Shown piece by piece: positions 172-10,872 of a stretch of DNA of 32,635 nucleotides. How positions within the stretch are numbered: position 1 is the stretch's first letter; each line of letters begins with the position of its first letter. A program made the translations under genes and the position numbers. The notes below the pieces were generated by a model. The model was not told the origin of the DNA. It was given only the letters and a program-made list of their open reading frames with translations, and made no database searches. The stretch lies in the UHGV virus genome UHGV-0186667. One strand, 5' to 3'. Origin of the DNA: a virus.

Positions 172-1197
172 TTAGCGATGCCAGTTGAGGTTATGAAGTG
201 GATTTTTGGTAACGGCATCTTCCAGATGATCCGGTGCAAAATGGGCATAAATCATGGTCATTTTAATATCAGCGTGCCCTAAAATATCCCTCAATACTAA
301 AATGTTTCCGCCGTTCATCATAAAGTGGCTGGCGAAAGTGTGGCGCAGAACGTGGGTACATTGACCTTCAGGTAGTTCAATTCCAGCTCGTTTTACCGCA
401 CGCTCAAAAGCCTTTCGGCATGGTGTGAATAACTTTCCTCTGTTTTTGGGTAATTCTTCATACAGTTCCTGAGAAATAGGAACAGTTCGGTTTTTCTTTC
501 CTTTTGTTTTGGTATAGGTAATTCGATACTTTGATATCTGGTTACCTTGCAGGTTTTCGGCTTCGCTCCATCTTGCCCCGGTTGCCAGACAAATCTTGGC
601 AATCATTAGCAGACTGGGACTTTGAGATTCAGCACAAGCGTCAAGCAGGCGTTTGATTTCATCAGCAGCAAGGAACGCCAGTTCACCCTCTGCAATTTTG
701 AAAGTTGGCAGACCGGCGAGAGGGTTGGGTGCAGACCAATGTCCCAGCTTTTTCAGTGTGCCAAAAACTGAGGATAGGTTACGTTGTTCAAGGTTCACCG
801 TTCTGGGCTTAACTGGTGACATGAGCACACCATCTTCGTTTTTGACCTCACCTTTTAATCTGGCTTCCCGGTATTTTGTGAAATCACCTGCTGTCAATTC
901 AGAAGCGATGGGATCGCCAAGCCCATTACAAATGATTTTTAACTTAGCCATTAATCGCTTAGGGTCAGCGAGTGTCTGACCGTACAGGGAATACCATTGC
1001 TCAATCACTTCTGACAGTTGTCGCCGATCTTCCTTTTCTCCCAGCCAAGGTTTCTTGTTTACCTCGTCCATGGTGAAATTCTCAAACGCAATGGCTTCGC
1101 CTTTCGTCGCAAATTGTTTGCGTACGCGTTTGCCATCTCGCCCGTTTGGGTAGCATTCACATAACCACTTTCCGTTCGGCTGTTTTCTGATGGTCAT
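172..1197 (-). CDS. int: Tyrosine integrase, P2/186 family
   Basis: 341 aa. C-terminal motifs ATGARWSEA, HVLRHTFASHF and MIYAHFAP match the tyrosine-recombinase catalytic region of P2 Int. Sits next to the att core. Confidence 0.9.
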   Translation of the reverse strand: MTIRKQPNGKWLCECYPNGRDGKRVRKQFATKGEAIAFENFTMDEVNKKPWLGEKEDRRQLSEVIEQWYSLYGQTLADPKRLMAKLKIICNGLGDPIASELTAGDFTKYREARLKGEVKNEDGVLMSPVKPRTVNLEQRNLSSVFGTLKKLGHWSAPNPLAGLPTFKIAEGELAFLAADEIKRLLDACAESQSPSLLMIAKICLATGARWSEAENLQGNQISKYRITYTKTKGKKNRTVPISQELYEELPKNRGKLFTPCRKAFERAVKRAGIELPEGQCTHVLRHTFASHFMMNGGNILVLRDILGHADIKMTMIYAHFAPDHLEDAVTKNPLHNLNWHR

Positions 1198-1198
1198 A

Positions 1199-1831
1199 TC
1201 AAAGGCTCTTAATGATTTTCAGTGCGCGGCCTATTACCTTAATGTCATCCAGTTCGCACTCAAACGATGAATCATCCTGATGCACTACTAATCTGTTTCC
1301 CGGGAGTCGTGTCAATTTTACAATGCTTTTTATCCCGTCGATGTCCACTAACCACGTACCATTTACTGGTGGTGTTTGGTTGCGATCTATTAAATAAGAA
1401 TCACCAGAAGTAGTCACCAGCAGCAGGTTGCTTGAGTCTGAGGGGAGTATGCTGCTATCAATGATTGCTTTTCCAGCATCGACCAATAAACCACCGTTGA
1501 GAGTTGCCTTTTCAATTTCAGGAGATACAAGCTCAGAAAGAGGTTTAACCTTGCTGGGGTTCACGGAATTGATATTTTTTTTAGGGTCAATGTTTGAACC
1601 TGGCTCGCCCTGTCCGGTGGTTAGCCATAGTAAAGAAACTCCTGTTTCCAAGGCGCACTGAATCACCCATTCTGCGGGAAAGCTATCTCTTAAGTATCTG
1701 TTTGCCATAGTGCTTTTTGATGCACCTAAGTGATCGCAAAGTTGCTGTCTGGACTTGAAATCATAGGCTGCCATTAGTCTGTGGATAGCCTCTCTTCCCC
1801 CTGTATTCTCGCCAGCTTTTACCTGTATCAT
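1199..1831 (-). CDS. CI-type immunity repressor (phage 186 CI-like)
   Basis: 210-aa ORF divergent from apl/cII, with an N-terminal helix-turn-helix-like stretch (SRQQLCDHLGASKSTMANRYL). Start may be the internal Met at 1774. Confidence 0.65.
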   Translation of the reverse strand: MIQVKAGENTGGREAIHRLMAAYDFKSRQQLCDHLGASKSTMANRYLRDSFPAEWVIQCALETGVSLLWLTTGQGEPGSNIDPKKNINSVNPSKVKPLSELVSPEIEKATLNGGLLVDAGKAIIDSSILPSDSSNLLLVTTSGDSYLIDRNQTPPVNGTWLVDIDGIKSIVKLTRLPGNRLVVHQDDSSFECELDDIKVIGRALKIIKSL

Positions 1832-3555: not shown

Positions 3556-3782
3556 TGGCTGATGCAATGGATCTCGTACAGCAGCGCGTTGAAGAAGAAC
3601 GCCAGCGTCATATCCGTGCTGCCCGTGCCAAAACGCCGGGCGTGTCCCGCGTGCTTTGCATTGAGTGTGAAGCGCCAATTCCGCCAGCACGCCGCCGTGC
3701 CATTCCGGGTGTGCAGCTTTGCATTACCTGTCAGGAAATCGCAGAGCTGAAAGGCAAACATTACAACGGAGGTGCTGTATGA
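3555..3782 (+). CDS. DksA/TraR-family C4 zinc-finger protein
   Basis: 75 aa with a four-cysteine motif CIECEAPIPPARRRAIPGVQLCITCQ, typical of TraR/DksA. Confidence 0.75.
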   Translation: MADAMDLVQQRVEEERQRHIRAARAKTPGVSRVLCIECEAPIPPARRRAIPGVQLCITCQEIAELKGKHYNGGAV

Positions 3783-4636
3783 GCACCATCCTGAAATGGG
3801 CGGGAAATAAAACTGCCATAATGTCAGAACTGAAAAAACACCTTCCTGCTGGCCCGCGACTGGTTGAACCTTTCGCGGGTTCCTGTGCTGTGATGATGGA
3901 GACGGATTACCCCAGCTATCTGGTTGCGGATATTAATCCTGATTTAATCAACCTCTATAAAAAGGTTGCCGCTGATTGTGAATCGTTTATATCGCGCGCC
4001 AGAGTTTTATTTGAGATCGCAAACAGGGAGGTGGCTTATTACAACATAAGGCAGGAGTTTAATTACTCCACTGAAATTACTGATTTCATGAAAGCGGTAT
4101 ATTTCCTGTATCTCAATCGTCACGGTTACCGTGGTTTATGTCGCTATAACAAGAGCGGGCATTTCAACATTCCCTACGGTAATTATAAAAATCCGTATTT
4201 CCCTGAAAAAGAAATTCGCGCATTTGCAGAAAAAGCCCAGCGGGCAACGTTTATCTGCGCCAGCTTTGATGAAACGCTGGCGATGTTGAAGGCGGGAGAT
4301 GTGGTGTATTGCGATCCGCCGTATGACGGCACGTTTTCCGGTTATCACACTGACGGCTTCACTGAAGATGACCAGTATCACCTGGCATCCGTTCTTGAAC
4401 ATCGGTCATCAGAAGGACATCCGGTCATTGTTTCTAACAGTGACACATCCCTGATCCGTTCGCTGTATCGCAATTTTACTCACCACTACATCAAGGCAAA
4501 ACGCAACATCGGTGTGGCAGCTGGCGAGGGTAAATCAGCAACAGAAATCATTGCTGTTTCCGGGCCGCGCTGCTGGGTGGGATTTGATTATTCGCGTAGC
4601 GTGGACAGTTCTGCCGTGTACGGAGTACGTGCATGA
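3779..4636 (+). CDS. dam: DNA adenine methyltransferase (Dam family)
   Basis: N-terminal ILKWAGNK motif, [15 protein letters not shown] block and DPPY catalytic motif (VYCDPPYDG) match E. coli Dam. Start ATG 3779 overlaps the upstream stop (ATGA). Confidence 0.85.
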
Positions 4637-7047
4637 GTCATGCCGATATGAACAACTGCTGCGGCTTTAACGAGGCTGCCGCAGCATTCTCATGGAACAG
4701 CCCGAAAAAAGCCATTAACCCTTATCTGGACCCGGCGGAAGTTGCGCCGGTTTCTGCGCTTTCAAACCTGATCACTCTGTACGCTGCCGATAACGAGCAG
4801 GAACAACTGCGCCGCGAGGCACTGAGTGATCAGGTCTGGGAGCGTTATTTCTTTAATGAATCCCGTGATCCTGTCCAGCGCGAAATGGAGCAGGATAAGC
4901 TAATTAGCCGGGCAAAGCTGGCGCATGAGCAGCAGCGTTTTAACCCGGACATGGTCATTCTGGCAGACGTCAGCGCCCAGCCCTCCCATATCAGCAAGCC
5001 GCTGATGCAACGTATTGAATACTTCAGCAGCCTGGGCAGGCCAAAGGCTTATTCCCGCTATTTACGTGAGACGATTAAGCCATGTCTGGAACGACTGGAG
5101 CATGTACGCGACAGCCAGCTATCTGCATCTTTTCGTTTTATGGCAAGCCATGTAGGGCTGGACGGCCTGCTGATTCTGCCTGAAATGAGTCAGGATCAGG
5201 TGAAACGCCTGTCTACCCTTGTCGCTGCGCATATGAGCATGTGCCTTGATGCAGCTTGTGGTGATTTGTATGCCACCGATGACGTTAAGCCAGAAGAAAT
5301 CCGCAAGACATGGGAAAAGGTGGCAGCGGAAACCCTGCGTCTGGATGTCATCCCGCCTGCGTTTGAGCAACTCCGCCGGAAAAGAAACCGCCGCAAACCT
5401 GTGCCCTATGAACTCATTCCGGGTTCGCTGGCGCGTATGCTGTGCGCCGACTGGTGGTATCGGAAATTATGGAAGATGCGTTGCGAATGGCGGGAAGAGC
5501 AGTTGCGTGCTGTCTGTCTGGTCAGCAAAAAAGCATCTCCCTATGTCAGCTATGAAGCCGTGATGCATAAACGTGAGCAGCGCCGCAAGTCACTGGAGTT
5601 TTTCCGTTCTCATGAACTGGTGAACGAAGAGGGCGACACGCTGGATATGGAAGACGTGGTAAACGCCAGCAGCAGCAACCCGGCGCACCGCCGCAATGAG
5701 ATGATGGCCTGTGTTAAAGGTCTGGAGCTTATCGCGGAAATGCGCGGTGACTGCGCCGTTTTCTACACCATTACCTGTCCGTCACGTTTCCATTCCACGC
5801 TCAATAACGGCAGACCAAACCCAACCTGGACAAATGCGACGGTAAGACAAAGCAGCGATTATCTGGTCGGCATGTTTGCTGCATTTCGTAAGGCGATGCA
5901 CAAAGCCGGGTTGCGCTGGTATGGCGTGCGGGTGGCTGAGCCGCATCATGACGGTACAGTTCACTGGCACCTGTTGTGTTTCATGCGCAAAAAAGACCGC
6001 CGCGCCATTACTGCATTGTTGCGTAAGTTTGCCATCCGTGAAGACCGCGAGGAACTGGGTAATAACACTGGTCCACGCTTTAAATCTGAGCTGATAAACC
6101 CGCGCAAAGGAACGCCGACAAGCTACATCGCGAAATACATCAGTAAGAACATTGACGGGCGTGGTCTGGCTGGCGAGATCAGCAAGGAAACGGGTAAATC
6201 CCTGCGTGATAACGCTGAATACGTTAATGCCTGGGCGTCTCTGCATCGTGTTCAGCAATTCCGCTTCTTTGGTATTCCGGGACGTCAGGCTTACCGTGAA
6301 CTTCGCTTGCTGGCTGGTCAGGCGGCAAGGCAACAGGGTGACAAAAAAGCAGGTGCGCCGGTACTGGATAACCCGCGTCTTGATGCCATTCTGGCTGCTG
6401 CTGATGCTGGTTGTTTTGCCACCTACATCATAAAGCAGGGCGGCGTACTGGTTCCCCGCAAATATCACCTCATCAGAACCGCTTATGAAATCAACGAAGT
6501 GCCAACCGCCTATGGCGATCACGGTATTCGTATTTATGGCATCTGGTCACCCATTGCAGAGGGCAAGATCTGCACTCATGCAGTGAAGTGGAAAATGGTT
6601 CGTAAGGCCGTTGACGTTCAGGAGGCGGCAGCCGACCAGGGCGCTTGCGCCCCTTGGACTCGTGGCAATAACTGTCCCCTTGCTGAAAATTTGTACCAAC
6701 AAGGGAAAGACAAATCAGCTGATGGGGATACCAGAACGGATATTACCCGCATGGATGACAAGGAATTGCACGATTACCTGCACAGTATGAACAAAAAAGA
6801 GCGCCGGGAACTGGCTGCAAGGTTACGCCTGGTGAAACCGAAACGGCGTAAAGACTACAAACAGCGAATTACAGACCATCAGCGACAGCAGCTCGTCTAT
6901 GAACTGAAGTCCAGAGGATTTGATGGCAGCGAGAAAGAGGTCGATTTACTCCTTCGCGGCGGCAGTATTCCGTCAGGAGCAGGCCTGCGTATCTTCTATC
7001 GGAACCAGCGTTTGCAGGAAGATGATAAGTGGCGAAACCTGTATTAA
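4633..7047 (+). CDS. A: Replication initiation protein A (rolling-circle HUH endonuclease)
   Basis: 804 aa. HUH-like motif VHWHLL and paired tyrosines YIAKYISK. Start overlaps the dam stop (ATGA). P2 gene A position. Confidence 0.85.
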
Positions 7048-7139
7048 TTACGCGGGTTAACAATTCGTGCTCTTAATAATACCAGGCATATCAGGCTGAT
7101 GAACGTAAAAAAACGTTTTACATCAGTAAGATTATTATA

Positions 7140-7159
7140 TACTGTAAATATAAACAGTG
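7140..7159. promoter_or_regulatory. LexA box (SOS operator)
   Basis: TACTGTAAATATAAACAGTG contains a perfect CTGT-N8-ACAG with an AT-rich spacer, 43 bp upstream of the ATG at 7200. Confidence 0.7.
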
Positions 7160-7199
7160 GTTATATTTACAGTATTGCTTTGGTGTCATAGGAGGAAAG

Positions 7200-7388
7200 A
7201 TGCAGGACTATTTTTTGGAGTCTTTGAAGCTCCAGCGCATTGATTTTTTTCTTAAGCTTGTAGCGGCTAGTGAGTGTAGTGATGAAGAGAAGGGGCTGGC
7301 TTTGCAGTGGGTTTCTGAACTAACAGATGAACTCATGGCAAAAATCAGAACCCACGAATACAACCGCTCAATGGATGTCATCAGTTGA
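7200..7388 (+). CDS. Hypothetical small protein, first gene of the SOS-controlled module
   Basis: 62-aa ORF with SD GGAGGA just upstream, directly after the LexA box; position equivalent to 186 tum. Confidence 0.45.
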   Translation: MQDYFLESLKLQRIDFFLKLVAASECSDEEKGLALQWVSELTDELMAKIRTHEYNRSMDVIS

Positions 7389-7399
7389 GGTGACTTTTT

Positions 7400-7633
7400 A
7401 TGCGCATTGAAATAATGATCGATAAAGAGCAGAAGATTAGCCAGTCTACCCTGGACGCCCTTGAATCCGAGCTTTACCGCAATCTGCGTCCTCTGTATCC
7501 CAAAATGGTAATTCGTATCCGCAAAGGTAGCTCTAACGGTGTGGAACTGACCGGATTGCAACTGGACGAAGAAAGAAAACAAGTGATGAAAATTATGCAG
7601 AAGGTGTGGGAAGACGACAGCTGGCTGCATTAA
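7400..7633 (+). CDS. DinI-family protein
   Basis: 77 aa. MRIEIMIDK...LDALESEL...VWEDDSWLH aligns by eye with E. coli DinI (MRIEVTIAK...IDALAGEL...TWESADDWF). Confidence 0.75.
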   Translation: MRIEIMIDKEQKISQSTLDALESELYRNLRPLYPKMVIRIRKGSSNGVELTGLQLDEERKQVMKIMQKVWEDDSWLH

Positions 7634-7903
7634 GAAACGTTGCTGGCGTCTGAACTTGCTTCTGGCGTCAGCAAGGTTGAACAACGAGCTATGCGAGGCG
7701 TTAGTGTCAATTTGTTACCTTAACCACTATATATGCCAGGAAATTAACAGTTCTTAAGAAACAGCTTGCATGATCGAGCGCATTGAACTTAAGTTTAAGT
7801 AACGCAATCAACAGATGATATTGTTGTCTAAATTTTAAAGATAATCTGTTGAGGTTGTAGGCGTCGGAGTGTAGACTTCCGCGCCATGTGAAAAGGGGGA
7901 GTT

Positions 7904-8119
7904 ATGTCAAGCATCGCCGCATTTAGCCTGGGTAACCCAGTTGAACGTCTGGCAAGGGTTCTTAAAGAGAACCAGGACAAACTCAATCTTAGTAAAGATG
8001 GTTTTGTGTCCGTAGACTTGTCTAACAAAAGAGCAATGGATGCCATCAAGGCACAGATGGATAAGCTTGAAGGCATCAAAACGAGCACTGTAAAAGAGAA
8101 AACTAATAGAACCAGATAA
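7904..8119 (+). CDS. Hypothetical small soluble protein, first gene of a two-gene cargo operon
   Basis: 71-aa ORF with strong SD AAGGGGGAG 4 nt upstream; its stop overlaps the next start (TAATG). No recognisable family. Confidence 0.5.
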   Translation: MSSIAAFSLGNPVERLARVLKENQDKLNLSKDGFVSVDLSNKRAMDAIKAQMDKLEGIKTSTVKEKTNRTR

Positions 8120-8961
8120 TGGCAACATTACTTTTAGCAGTGATTTTGGTTAGTGGTTTTATTTATGTAAACCTATCACTTTCAACAAGATACCGATATA
8201 AGCGTTCCAACGGCTGGGACGCTTATTTTTTTGTGGCTGCCTGGGGTATCGTTTTTTTTCTCCTTGGCGGTTTTTTCACCTTTATTTTGAACGTCAGCGG
8301 AGGGTTTCGTTGGCTGGCTAATGCCTTGAATCTAACACCTGACAGTTTTAATGGCATGTTGTCTTCATCGAAAGACAAACTTCAAAGAATAAATGAAATC
8401 AAACAGATAGCATGGGTTATGATTTCAATTGTCCTCGCTGCGATTTCAGGTTTTGGAAATAAGTTACGCACATCACGTGGAGATCGTCGTTGGGATGCCT
8501 TAGCTAAAGCTGTGGGTAATAACGCTTTCGAATCATTACTCATGGAAGCGTCCGCAAGACAGTTTCCGATCATAGCAACTCTGTCGTCTCGCAAAATCTA
8601 TGTTGGTCTTGTTACTTGTCCGGCGTTAGAAAACGGGCTTTCAGAGCACCTTGAACTTCTCCCGATGTTAAGCGGATATCGGGATAAAGATGATCTAACG
8701 ATTAGTATCACGACTAACTATCACCAACATTATCTTGATAGTGGTGTGATAAGTGGAATGTCTCGGCTTAATATCGAAGATTTCCGTGTGCTCATACCAA
8801 AAGATGAGGTTGAAACAATTTCGTTTTTTGATACTGAGACATATAACAAATTTAAAGAAAATGAAGCCAGGGATAGAAAGAACTGTCGAAAGATTGATAG
8901 TAAAAGTGCATCTTCGCGCAGCAAGCGTGCAGCAGATGCTGAGTCAAATGATCGTGCATGA
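8119..8961 (+). CDS. Hypothetical membrane protein with three predicted TM helices and a soluble C-terminal domain
   Basis: 280 aa. Hydrophobic segments at about aa 3-19, 35-57 and 96-112; C-terminal ~170 aa soluble with a basic tail. Visibly AT-rich compared with phage core genes. Confidence 0.6.
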   Translation: MATLLLAVILVSGFIYVNLSLSTRYRYKRSNGWDAYFFVAAWGIVFFLLGGFFTFILNVSGGFRWLANALNLTPDSFNGMLSSSKDKLQRINEIKQIAWVMISIVLAAISGFGNKLRTSRGDRRWDALAKAVGNNAFESLLMEASARQFPIIATLSSRKIYVGLVTCPALENGLSEHLELLPMLSGYRDKDDLTISITTNYHQHYLDSGVISGMSRLNIEDFRVLIPKDEVETISFFDTETYNKFKENEARDRKNCRKIDSKSASSRSKRAADAESNDRA

Positions 8962-9078
8962 CTATGCTGCATGAGATCGCATGATCGTTTGAGGATCGTT
9001 TTTGCTAGGGCCCGCCAGAACTGGCGGGCTTTCGCGTAGATCATGCACCTGCATGAAAACTACTACATAAAGCGGGCA

Positions 9079-9097
9079 GGCGTGGCGGGGATACGAG
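9079..9097. other. Candidate cos (cohesive-end) site
   Basis: GGCGTGGCGGGGATACGAG shares its first 13 nt with the 19-nt cohesive end of phage 186 as I remember it (GGCGTGGCGGGGAAAGCAT). Lies between hairpins and a 16-bp palindrome. Confidence 0.3.
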
Positions 9098-9198
9098 CGC
9101 GCGCAACAGTGTAACAATCTGGATCTAATGTGATATAGTTACTGTAAATATTATTAACTATTCTTATATGCATTATTAAATATTTTAATGGAGCGTTT

Positions 9199-10872
9199 AT
9201 GGAAAAATATCAAGATGAGGAATATGTAGATGATTTAACTGAGCGTGTTTTTCTCATTAAGCAACAACTGGAAGCGGGAAAACTAAAAATAGCTCATCAT
9301 CTTGTAGAAGGTTTTATTGAAAGTTTTAAAAGAATAAGGCTGCGACAGGATGGTAAAGTTGACCCTTCTACTGTTGATGGCAGAATAAGGGCTATGGGAG
9401 CAGCGGTTAATCACTTTTTAGAAAGAGAAGATATAAAAAACAAATACTCTATTCAGGACTTGCAAAGTTCTTACTTTAATATTCTTTTTAGTAATTTTGG
9501 CGAGTTGTTTTATCTGATGAAAAAAACTAATGCAACGCCACATAAAGCATCAAGTTTTTTTTCTCAACAAGAAGAATATGTTAAGCAAATAGAAGATATT
9601 TTTCCTGAGTTATATAATCAGGTAATAGAGTTTTGGCAGGTAACATCCGATATTGGTGTAATACATTTGCAGGATGGTTCTCAGTTTAAAGCTAATTTTT
9701 CTGGTGACTTATTTCCTGCATTTGATGAGAATGCTGTCTCTATTGCAGGGTTGTATGTTGATACTATTTCACTTCCATGTCCTATATTAAGAGTCGGTCG
9801 TCTCTATGAAAAGTCAGATAAGGCTGAGTTTACAAGGATACTTCTGAAGCATGTCCTAACATGTATGACATATAAAGAAGTAGCGCTTGAAGATATAGAG
9901 CCAGCAATAGTATTAATTTTGCCGGATAGAAGAGATTTTGAAACTGAGAGCAAAAAAAATTTGATGAGTTTTTGTGAGCCTTATGCTCTGACTCATGCGC
10001 AATATCTCTATGATCGACGGTTCGAAAGCTACGATGAATTTCGAGATTTTAGTTATTCGATGAATGATATTGATGCTGTTCTTAAAAATATTAAGAGAGC
10101 AGATAGACTTATTTTTGATACAGCATGGGGGCTAAATCCAAAAACTCAATTAGAAAAACTACTATCTGATAAAAAAAGAATATCACGTAATGTTGTTGGT
10201 GATCATGCTGGAATGGAGGTTTTCCTTTCCTGCATTGGAAGAATGCCGCAAGCCTATTCAGCAAAATGTAATGCACAAGAACTTGGTAGTACTCCATATA
10301 TAAATGCAGACACATCTTGGCTCTATTATACTTGGCTTATTGAGTACGAATCTCTTAATTTTGATGTCAATGATATTGAACTAAAAAATTTGCATATGGT
10401 TCATGCGTTATCTGCTGGTATGCAAGATGGTTTTTCATGGTTAGGAAATGTACCGGTCAATAAAATAATTGAGTTGAGACGTAACAAATTGATGGAGGAT
10501 GTAAGATCCATCTTATCAAATGGTGTTGACTCTTTAATCAATTCTTCGGCAGAGAGCTTTTCGAGGACAACGCAAAAAGTAATTGATAATGTAGACCGGG
10601 CTTTTATTGAACATCAAAGGATTCTTGCAAAAGCCCAAAAAGAGAAATTGAGAATTTACGGACTAGATGTCCTACCATGTATCGCAAATGGTGCTATAGC
10701 AATTGCTGGAGCGCTGACTGGCAATACTACTTTAACGGCGTTAAGTGCAGGCCTTGGAGTAATAGGTATTCCGAGTATTAGTGATATCAAATCTAAATTT
10801 AAGCAGAGGCAAGAGAAGCTTGATGCCTATCAACGTTCTGTTACAGGTATACTCTTTAGCCATAAATCTTAA
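9199..10872 (+). CDS. Hypothetical 557-aa cargo protein with C-terminal hydrophobic Gly/Ala-rich segment
   Basis: Long uninterrupted ORF, strongly AT-rich, SD GGAG 5 nt upstream. No Walker A, no YxDD, no recognisable catalytic motif. C-terminal stretch IANGAIAIAGALTGNTTLTALSAGLGVIGIPSI looks membrane-inserting. Confidence 0.7.
   Translation: MEKYQDEEYVDDLTERVFLIKQQLEAGKLKIAHHLVEGFIESFKRIRLRQDGKVDPSTVDGRIRAMGAAVNHFLEREDIKNKYSIQDLQSSYFNILFSNFGELFYLMKKTNATPHKASSFFSQQEEYVKQIEDIFPELYNQVIEFWQVTSDIGVIHLQDGSQFKANFSGDLFPAFDENAVSIAGLYVDTISLPCPILRVGRLYEKSDKAEFTRILLKHVLTCMTYKEVALEDIEPAIVLILPDRRDFETESKKNLMSFCEPYALTHAQYLYDRRFESYDEFRDFSYSMNDIDAVLKNIKRADRLIFDTAWGLNPKTQLEKLLSDKKRISRNVVGDHAGMEVFLSCIGRMPQAYSAKCNAQELGSTPYINADTSWLYYTWLIEYESLNFDVNDIELKNLHMVHALSAGMQDGFSWLGNVPVNKIIELRRNKLMEDVRSILSNGVDSLINSSAESFSRTTQKVIDNVDRAFIEHQRILAKAQKEKLRIYGLDVLPCIANGAIAIAGALTGNTTLTALSAGLGVIGIPSISDIKSKFKQRQEKLDAYQRSVTGILFSHKS

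Follow-up and report, generated by a model that had tools for sequence, protein, structure and literature searches.

A predicted SOS operon with a colicin-type double LexA operator and a split tum module in a Fels-2-like prophage

How does damage to the host DNA end lysogeny in a prophage whose immunity repressor belongs to a family for which we know of no RecA-dependent self-cleavage? The question is raised by a stretch of 32,635 nucleotides (the virus genome UHGV-0186667, here called the window), which carries two small genes directly behind the replication gene A. Because int, a CI-type repressor, CII, a Dam methylase, gpA, portal and terminase genes are present, the window is assigned to the 186/Fels-2-type prophages; it is a Fels-2-like member of the P2/186 family. 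According to the original prediction the two genes form an SOS-controlled module at the position of tum of phage 186, consisting of a LexA box, a 62-aa ORF that may be the antirepressor part, and a 77-aa DinI-family gene. The module is indeed located directly after gene A, where 186 has p95-tum: gpA ends at 7047, the operator follows at 7140-7174 and the 62-aa ORF (tumA) starts at 7200, an arrangement as in 186 and PSP3. The answer that we regard as probable is a LexA-gated tumA-tumB SOS operon, in which TumA would sequester CI and TumB would modulate RecA and the SOS response. The features are listed in Table 1.

Table 1. Features of the window that are relevant to the tumA-tumB operon and its surroundings
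Feature	Position	Strand	Remarks
Integrase	172-1197	-	
cI, 210-aa 186-type immunity repressor, presumed TumA target	1199-1831	-	Pfam Phage_CI_repr and Phage_CI_C
CII homologue			between cI repressor and D12 methylase in gene order
D12 N6-adenine methyltransferase (Dam methylase)	3719-4636	+	
Replication protein gpA (gene A)	4633-7047		
-35-like hexamer TTTACA, putative SOS promoter (p95 equivalent)	7117-7122	+	by analogy with 186 p95
-10-like hexamer TACTGT, also left arm of LexA box 1	7140-7145	+	by analogy with 186 p95
LexA box 1, TACTGTAAATATAAACAGTG	7140-7159	+	core CTGT-N8-ACAG at 7142-7157
LexA box 2, CAGTGGTTATATTTACAGTA	7155-7174	+	core GTGG-N8-ACAG at 7157-7172
Shine-Dalgarno sequence AGGAGG of tumA	7190-7195	+	4 nt 5' of ATG at 7200; conserved in relatives
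tumA, 62-aa acidic helical-hairpin protein, presumed CI antirepressor	7200-7388	+	
tumB, 77-aa DinI-family protein	7400-7633	+	
Stable hairpin at operon end, without U tract	7636-7678	+	
Three cargo ORFs (71, 280 and 557 aa)	7904-10872	+	between SOS operon and portal gene
Portal and terminase genes	beyond cargo ORFs	-	

The module has known counterparts. Between positions 7050 and 7700 the window shares 97.8% nucleotide identity with the Salmonella phage Fels-2, in which tumA and tumB likewise follow gene A and encode proteins 98% and 99% identical to those of the window, behind a double LexA operator that deviates from the window's by a single base in box 2. The annotation of Fels-2 lists STM2728 as hypothetical and STM2726.1 as DinI family, 'similar to PSP3 TumB'. 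The two elements differ in their immunity repressors, which are just 57% identical, and downstream of the operon, where Fels-2 carries a cargo gene of 243 aa and the window the three ORFs of Table 1. Phage PSP3 also has a split tumA/tumB behind a LexA box after gene A, with a TumB 77% identical to the window protein, and its tumA is annotated as 'similar to 5' end of 186 tum; UV induction of prophage'. PSP3 TumA has about 60 aa and is acidic like the window protein, but it is only about 22% identical to it and belongs to phrog_1993 instead of phrog_698; furthermore, PSP3 has a single LexA box and a different CI class. In 186 itself a LexA-repressed promoter with its -10 TACTGT inside the box lies directly after gene A, as in the window, and drives an antirepressor that binds CI without cleaving it and that includes a DinI-like moiety comparable to TumB. 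Unlike the split genes of the window, 186 tum encodes a single fused protein of 146 aa, from which internal starts yield the DinI-like part (such a fusion is seen in 76 of 80 186-type loci), and 186 differs further by its single LexA box and by a canonical terminator and orf97 downstream.

A functionally similar arrangement is found in the LexA-repressed dinI-gfoA/gftA operons of Gifsy-1/2/3 in Salmonella, which also combine a DinI homologue with a small antirepressor. As described by Lemire et al. (PMC3121763), these antirepressors bring about induction without repressor cleavage and are active across several repressors. The Gifsy phages are lambdoid, in contrast to the window element, their dinI gene comes first, and no sequence similarity was detected between their antirepressor or repressor families and those of the window. 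The same paper, citing Bunny, Liu and Roth (2002), likens 186 Tum to an antirepressor fused to DinI and describes tum of Fels-2 and PSP3 as split in two by a stop codon; there, antirepressor activity is assigned to the upstream gene of PSP3 (TumA) on the basis of a personal communication only. 186 Tum is made from the LexA-repressed promoter p95 and sequesters CI (PMC7708051); as Shearwin (1998) is cited in PMC3121763 and PMC7708051, it binds CI and reversibly blocks operator binding, and SOS induction requires it. The module of the window is thus the equivalent of 186 p95-tum in its split tumA-tumB form, which has already been described for Fels-2, PSP3 and 186, and since the near-identical Fels-2 element was among those described, the interpretation given in the original prediction had already been published.

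The two genes are closely spaced. The core of the LexA box is placed 43 nt 5' of tumA, and a gap of 11 nt separates tumA from tumB, with the Shine-Dalgarno sequence GAGGTG of tumB beginning inside the tumA stop codon. This Shine-Dalgarno sequence immediately after the stop codon is the conserved part of the tumA/tumB junction among the relatives. A hairpin at the junction (7377-7394) was considered as an attenuator or terminator and was rejected, as it occurs only in the lineage of the window, Fels-2 and one further relative (L004) and is not conserved in other relatives.

The assignment of the 77-aa protein to the DinI family was confirmed by Pfam DinI with 81.5 bits (E 5.4e-23; gathering cutoff 24.2), the match covering 63 of 63 model positions. 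TumB also matches the structures 1ghh/7ywa of E. coli DinI (E 4e-6), and its identity to the C-terminal half of 186 Tum is 39%. At its C-terminus VWEDDSW aligns with TWESADDW of E. coli DinI and VWED(E/D)SW of 186 and PSP3, in agreement with the conserved acidic helix of the family, which ends in WE(D/E)xxW. With 41.3 bits TumB did not reach the cutoff of 111 of NF007893, the NCBIfam equivalog of chromosomal DinI, and is therefore taken as a phage paralogue of the TumB type and not as a host dinI product. By its family membership TumB may bind RecA filaments and modulate co-protease activity. In about 13 of 33 genomic relatives tumB is missing while tumA is still preceded by the LexA box (L009, L013, L019, L023, L027-L034, L036). 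As far as this distribution among relatives tells, the DinI-like gene was repeatedly lost while tumA was kept, and tumB is dispensable in evolution. In one of these relatives (L030, 8170-8250) a frameshifted remnant of the tumB start is fused to the end of tumA.

TumA presumably acts on the CI protein of the window (1199-1831), which matches Phage_CI_repr (5.6e-31) and Phage_CI_C (4e-28) and is, by its sequence, of the 186-CI type, with 33% identity to 186 CI and the 57% to Fels-2 CI already mentioned. For comparison of repressors and antirepressors, loci with 8-kb flanks were gathered for the three Tum types (window, 186 and PSP3), and the CI proteins were clustered by single linkage at 60% identity. 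One cluster (57 loci) contains 55 loci with 186-type, one with window-type and one with PSP3-type tum, another (44 loci) contains 43 with PSP3-type and one with 186-type tum, and every other cluster is pure. The Tum type thus tracks the CI class; at this level the two genes keep company with each other, which would be predicted if CI is the target of TumA. Coevolution of TumA and CI on a finer scale was rejected: within the window TumA type no covariation was found (Spearman -0.06, 300 pairs), so that the association holds at the class level only. The three loci that break the rule (within L199-L437) place a window-type and a PSP3-type tum each beside a 186-class CI and a 186-type tum beside a PSP3-class CI. 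These natural recombinants could show whether antirepressors cross the class boundary.

A TumA 100% identical to that of the window was found in 80 loci. A cI gene was detected in 70 of the 80 loci, without exception on the opposite strand and 5.0-7.5 kb upstream, and these 70 loci comprise 41 different CI proteins. The median pairwise identity among these CI proteins is 46% at full length, 67% in the N-terminal and 33% in the C-terminal domain, so that the diversity is unequally distributed over the protein. Over the prophages with this TumA type (L358-L437 and L004-L036) the median pairwise identity is 62-67% for the N-terminal domain and 32-33% for the C-terminal oligomerisation domain, whereas the two domains diverge equally in 186-type phages (68% vs 63%). 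The C-terminal domain of CI seems to diversify independently in the window-TumA lineage, as these identity values suggest. The N-terminal domain keeps the motif GG..AI.R...AY.F..RQ.L..HL..S.ST.ANR..R..FP..W...C...TG.S..WL, which is shared only in part by CI of 186 and PSP3. It contains 44 columns with at least 90% conservation, including SKSTMANR..RD.FP..W, and the CI of the window has these residues. Most simply, the contact site of TumA would be the conserved N-terminal DNA-binding domain, which would allow it to serve many CI variants.

Alternatively, some TumA-CI pairings, possibly including that of the window, may be mismatched. The module would then be intact and under SOS control, but after recombinational reshuffling TumA would not fit the resident CI, and the prophage would be poorly inducible by DNA damage or not at all; the operon would mainly provide DinI-like modulation or induce co-resident relatives. 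Such a misfit would be in line with the occurrence of identical TumA proteins beside CI proteins that are 34-57% identical to one another, and with the few loci in which Tum type and CI class do not correspond. Furthermore, the Fels-2/186-like prophage BTP5 expresses tum strongly and yields no detectable phage (PMC7067206). Against it stands the N-terminal domain of the window CI, which has the motifs common to nearly all CI proteins paired with the window TumA type. In addition, a CI 97.6% identical and a TumA 100% identical to those of the window occur together in records of sequenced Klebsiella phages. We therefore consider a misfit unlikely for the window and keep to TumA as the presumed antirepressor of the resident CI.

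That the 62-aa protein is the antirepressor part, as originally proposed, agrees with a profile link to the N-terminal half of 186 Tum and with the published split tum genes of Fels-2 and PSP3. tumA is a real gene, as its median dN/dS of 0.06 at a median dS of about 1 (34 loci) indicates strong purifying selection. The protein is acidic (pI 4.6), as are the N-terminal half of 186 Tum and PSP3 TumA. It matches phrog_698 with E 3.6e-38 and, more weakly, phrog_8554 and phrog_1993, the family of PSP3 TumA (E 0.0022 for the latter). The N-terminal half of 186 Tum in turn matches the HMM of phrog_698 (E 6.4e-6), and hhalign of the TumA family against this half gave P 1.3e-4 and 54% probability, with collinear columns 1-42. 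Divergent members of the TumA family bridge the gap, matching phrog_1993 (1e-8) and, in its N-terminal part, phrog_189, the 186 Tum family (5.8e-5). In pairwise comparison TumA is only about 20% identical to 186 Tum or PSP3 TumA. A search of 1.84 billion representative proteins with the TumA profile yielded 86 relatives, nearly all of them stand-alone proteins of 50-75 aa, and no fused 186-type Tum was found in this library at E<=0.001. A repeat protein of 1205 aa among the 86 matches looks spurious. Since the library-wide search missed the fused Tum, the homology of TumA and Tum rests on the smaller search spaces. On these profile comparisons TumA is a distant homologue of the non-DinI, N-terminal half of Tum from 186, and the relationship can still be traced.

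Could the 62-aa protein instead have an accessory role, being made in the SOS response but directed at RecA, LexA, cell division, a host regulator or some other target, while the prophage is induced by another route? TumA has no match in Pfam, NCBIfam or PADLOC and none by sequence in the PDB, and public databases label it hypothetical, with one entry as 'levan regulatory protein'. The AF2 model predicts a two-helix hairpin (pLDDT 90), for which Foldseek found no match in the PDB below E = 1; the predicted fold is a generic helical hairpin without an informative structural neighbour. These results would suit an accessory protein, as would the lack of fine-scale covariation with CI. Against such a role, TumA is a remote, collinear homologue of PSP3 TumA and of the part of 186 Tum that acts as antirepressor, tumA has its position, promoter and operator in common with tum, and each Tum type is found almost exclusively with its own CI class. 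Moreover, tumA stands alone without tumB in the relatives named above, as expected of an essential induction gene, and CI of this family, as established for 186 CI, is not known to undergo RecA-dependent self-cleavage. An accessory role thus appears very unlikely. The assignment of TumA as antirepressor of the window CI is, in our judgement, somewhat less certain than the SOS control of the promoter.

The regulation of the operon was deduced from its upstream region. The perfect box CTGT-N8-ACAG predicted at 7142-7157 is present exactly there (CTGTAAATATAAACAG). The 8-base core pattern alone is not significant, with one occurrence in the window against 0.44 expected and at least one in 37 of 100 shuffles. 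The 20-mer TACTGTAAATATAAACAGTG, however, agrees with the LexA consensus TACTGTATATATATACAGTA in 17 of its 20 bases. No other site in the 32.6 kb comes within three mismatches of the consensus, and none of 100 shuffles yielded any such site. Upstream regions were compared among 33 genomic relatives, including Escherichia, Citrobacter, Klebsiella, Enterobacter, Pantoea, Erwinia and Tatumella. The 33 relatives retain TTTACA, 17 nt and TA(T)ACTGT...ACAG, and in about 30 of 35 loci, which come from many genera of enterobacteria, the tumA homologue is preceded by the -35-like TTTACA, the 17-nt spacer and the box together, while the sequence of the spacer is divergent. The conservation of the box at orthologous positions beside a diverging spacer shows that it is real. 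The same holds across Tum types: TTnACA followed after 16-18 nt by a TACTGT-like hexamer is present in 30 of 35 window-type, 72 of 80 186-type and 69 of 80 PSP3-type loci, and a perfect box lies 5' of tum in 80 of 80 186-type and 78 of 80 PSP3-type loci. As judged from the uniqueness of the 20-mer in the window and from a box kept in register with the -35 hexamer across genera, the original prediction of an SOS-controlled module stands, and SOS control of the tumA-tumB promoter is close to certain.

The SOS promoter was missed by a generic promoter scan, since TACTGT agrees with TATAAT in just three of six positions. The hexamers TTTACA and TACTGT were assigned as the probable promoter elements of the tumA operon by analogy with annotated 186 p95, where TTCACA is separated by 18 nt from the -10 TACTGT within the LexA site.

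A second LexA box, absent from the original prediction, was found at 7157-7172 (GTGGTTATATTTACAG). It overlaps box 1, as the first base of its core (7157) is the last base of the box 1 core; its left arm (GTGG) is degenerate and its 20-mer at 7155-7174 matches the LexA consensus at 15 of 20 positions. An abutting pair CTG-N10-CAG / TG-N10-CAG is present in 22 of 35 genome loci and in 76 of 80 IMG/VR loci with the window TumA type, and in none of the 80 186-type and none of the 80 PSP3-type loci. When the 43-nt operator was used as a query, about 900 plasmids were matched, mostly small mobilisable ones, and in two examples, one with a cloacin-like gene and one with a gene like that of colicin E1, the match is located directly 5' of the gene and aligns column for column. 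The colicin and cloacin operators of Col plasmids have the same layout CTGT-N8-(A/C)CAG-TGG-N8-ACAG and nearly the same sequence, but they drive bacteriocin genes instead of a prophage induction gene, and their -35 region and upstream spacing are unlike those of the window operator. Colicin promoters are classical cases of overlapping SOS-box pairs, to which two LexA dimers bind with very low basal expression as the result, and the paired dimers are thought to give very tight repression (PMC2994835). By layout and sequence the operator of the window is a colicin-type double overlapping operator. By analogy with the colicin promoters it is probably occupied by two LexA dimers, and the tumA operon may be repressed more tightly than 186 p95.

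That the match to the LexA box is merely chance in an AT-rich promoter sequence, the operon being constitutive or regulated by the phage only, is hardly conceivable: the expectation of 0.44 core patterns per window would permit it, but the 20-mer is unique, the box keeps its register with the -35 hexamer across genera and three divergent Tum types, it is near-identical to experimentally established colicin operators, and genetic data tie Fels-2 to LexA. The latter are summarised from Bunny (2002) in a paper of 2025 (PMC12626290), by which all survivors of lexA-null Salmonella LT2 had lost Fels-2.

For the LexA-gated operon the following course of events is proposed. In the undamaged lysogen host LexA would sit on the double operator at 7140-7174, covering the -10 and the start region, and would keep the operon tightly off; the promoter is presumably a weak sigma-70 promoter (TTTACA-17-TACTGT) whose -10 is occluded by bound LexA. 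Upon DNA damage RecA would be activated, LexA would cleave itself and tumA-tumB would be transcribed, with TumA and TumB being translated from adjacent ribosome sites. TumA would then bind CI, most likely at its conserved N-terminal helix-turn-helix domain, and sequester it from its operators in a stoichiometric and reversible manner. As a result the early lytic promoter would be derepressed and the prophage induced without repressor cleavage, while TumB may bind RecA filaments and adjust how strong the SOS signal is or how long it lasts. For the window element we infer from its relatives and from the comparisons given above that LexA binds, that the hexamers act as promoter, that TumA contacts CI and by which domain, and what TumB does.

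If the proposed course is correct, the module decides when the prophage leaves its host, and it explains how DNA-damaging antibiotics induce such prophages without repressor cleavage. It also has value for annotation, as a gene that is 'hypothetical' in essentially all databases is recognised in the literature as that half of tum which encodes the antirepressor. The double LexA operator and the pattern of one TumA with many CI proteins are incremental, modest extensions of known biology; both bear on the cross-induction of co-resident prophages. As a tentative extension, which we consider conceivable without favouring it, TumA of the Fels-2 lineage might act as a generalist 'master key': a near-invariant protein would inactivate dozens of heteroimmune-looking CI proteins (C-terminal domains about 33% identical) via their conserved N-terminal domain, gated by the double LexA operator that would delay firing until damage is severe. 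If true, a single TumA made in the SOS response would induce every Fels-2-like prophage residing in the same host, regardless of immunity, and the diversification of CI would be driven by something besides escape from the antirepressor, for example the avoidance of mixed oligomers.

The operon is followed by the hairpin at 7636-7678, with a dG of -25.5 kcal/mol and a z of -2.5. It lacks a U tract and differs from the canonical terminator t95a of 186, and an Rfam scan of 6900-8200 gave no match. In 47 loci the 5' arm of the hairpin (AACGTTGCTGGCGT) follows the operon at a fixed distance; among them are loci without tumB, where it comes directly after tumA. The hairpin could be a transcript-end or stability element, or it could mark a recombination boundary of the module.

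Some further observations concern the surroundings of the operon. On the minus strand an ORF of 158 aa (7208-7684) lies opposite the frames of the plus strand, which are conserved and under purifying selection. The D12-class methyltransferase gene is located directly 5' of gene A with an overlap of 4 nt; Fels-2 is organised in the same way, while 186 has a PAPS-reductase-like gene at that position. The region of the three cargo ORFs is a variable slot, because Fels-2 and 186 have different genes there. The first ORF belongs to phrog_9843. The second belongs to phrog_3630 and has predicted N-terminal membrane helices and no Pfam match. The third has no match in Pfam or PHROG and weak PADLOC matches to DitB (7e-10) and LeoBC (0.005). 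Possibly, this slot serves for anti-phage defence.
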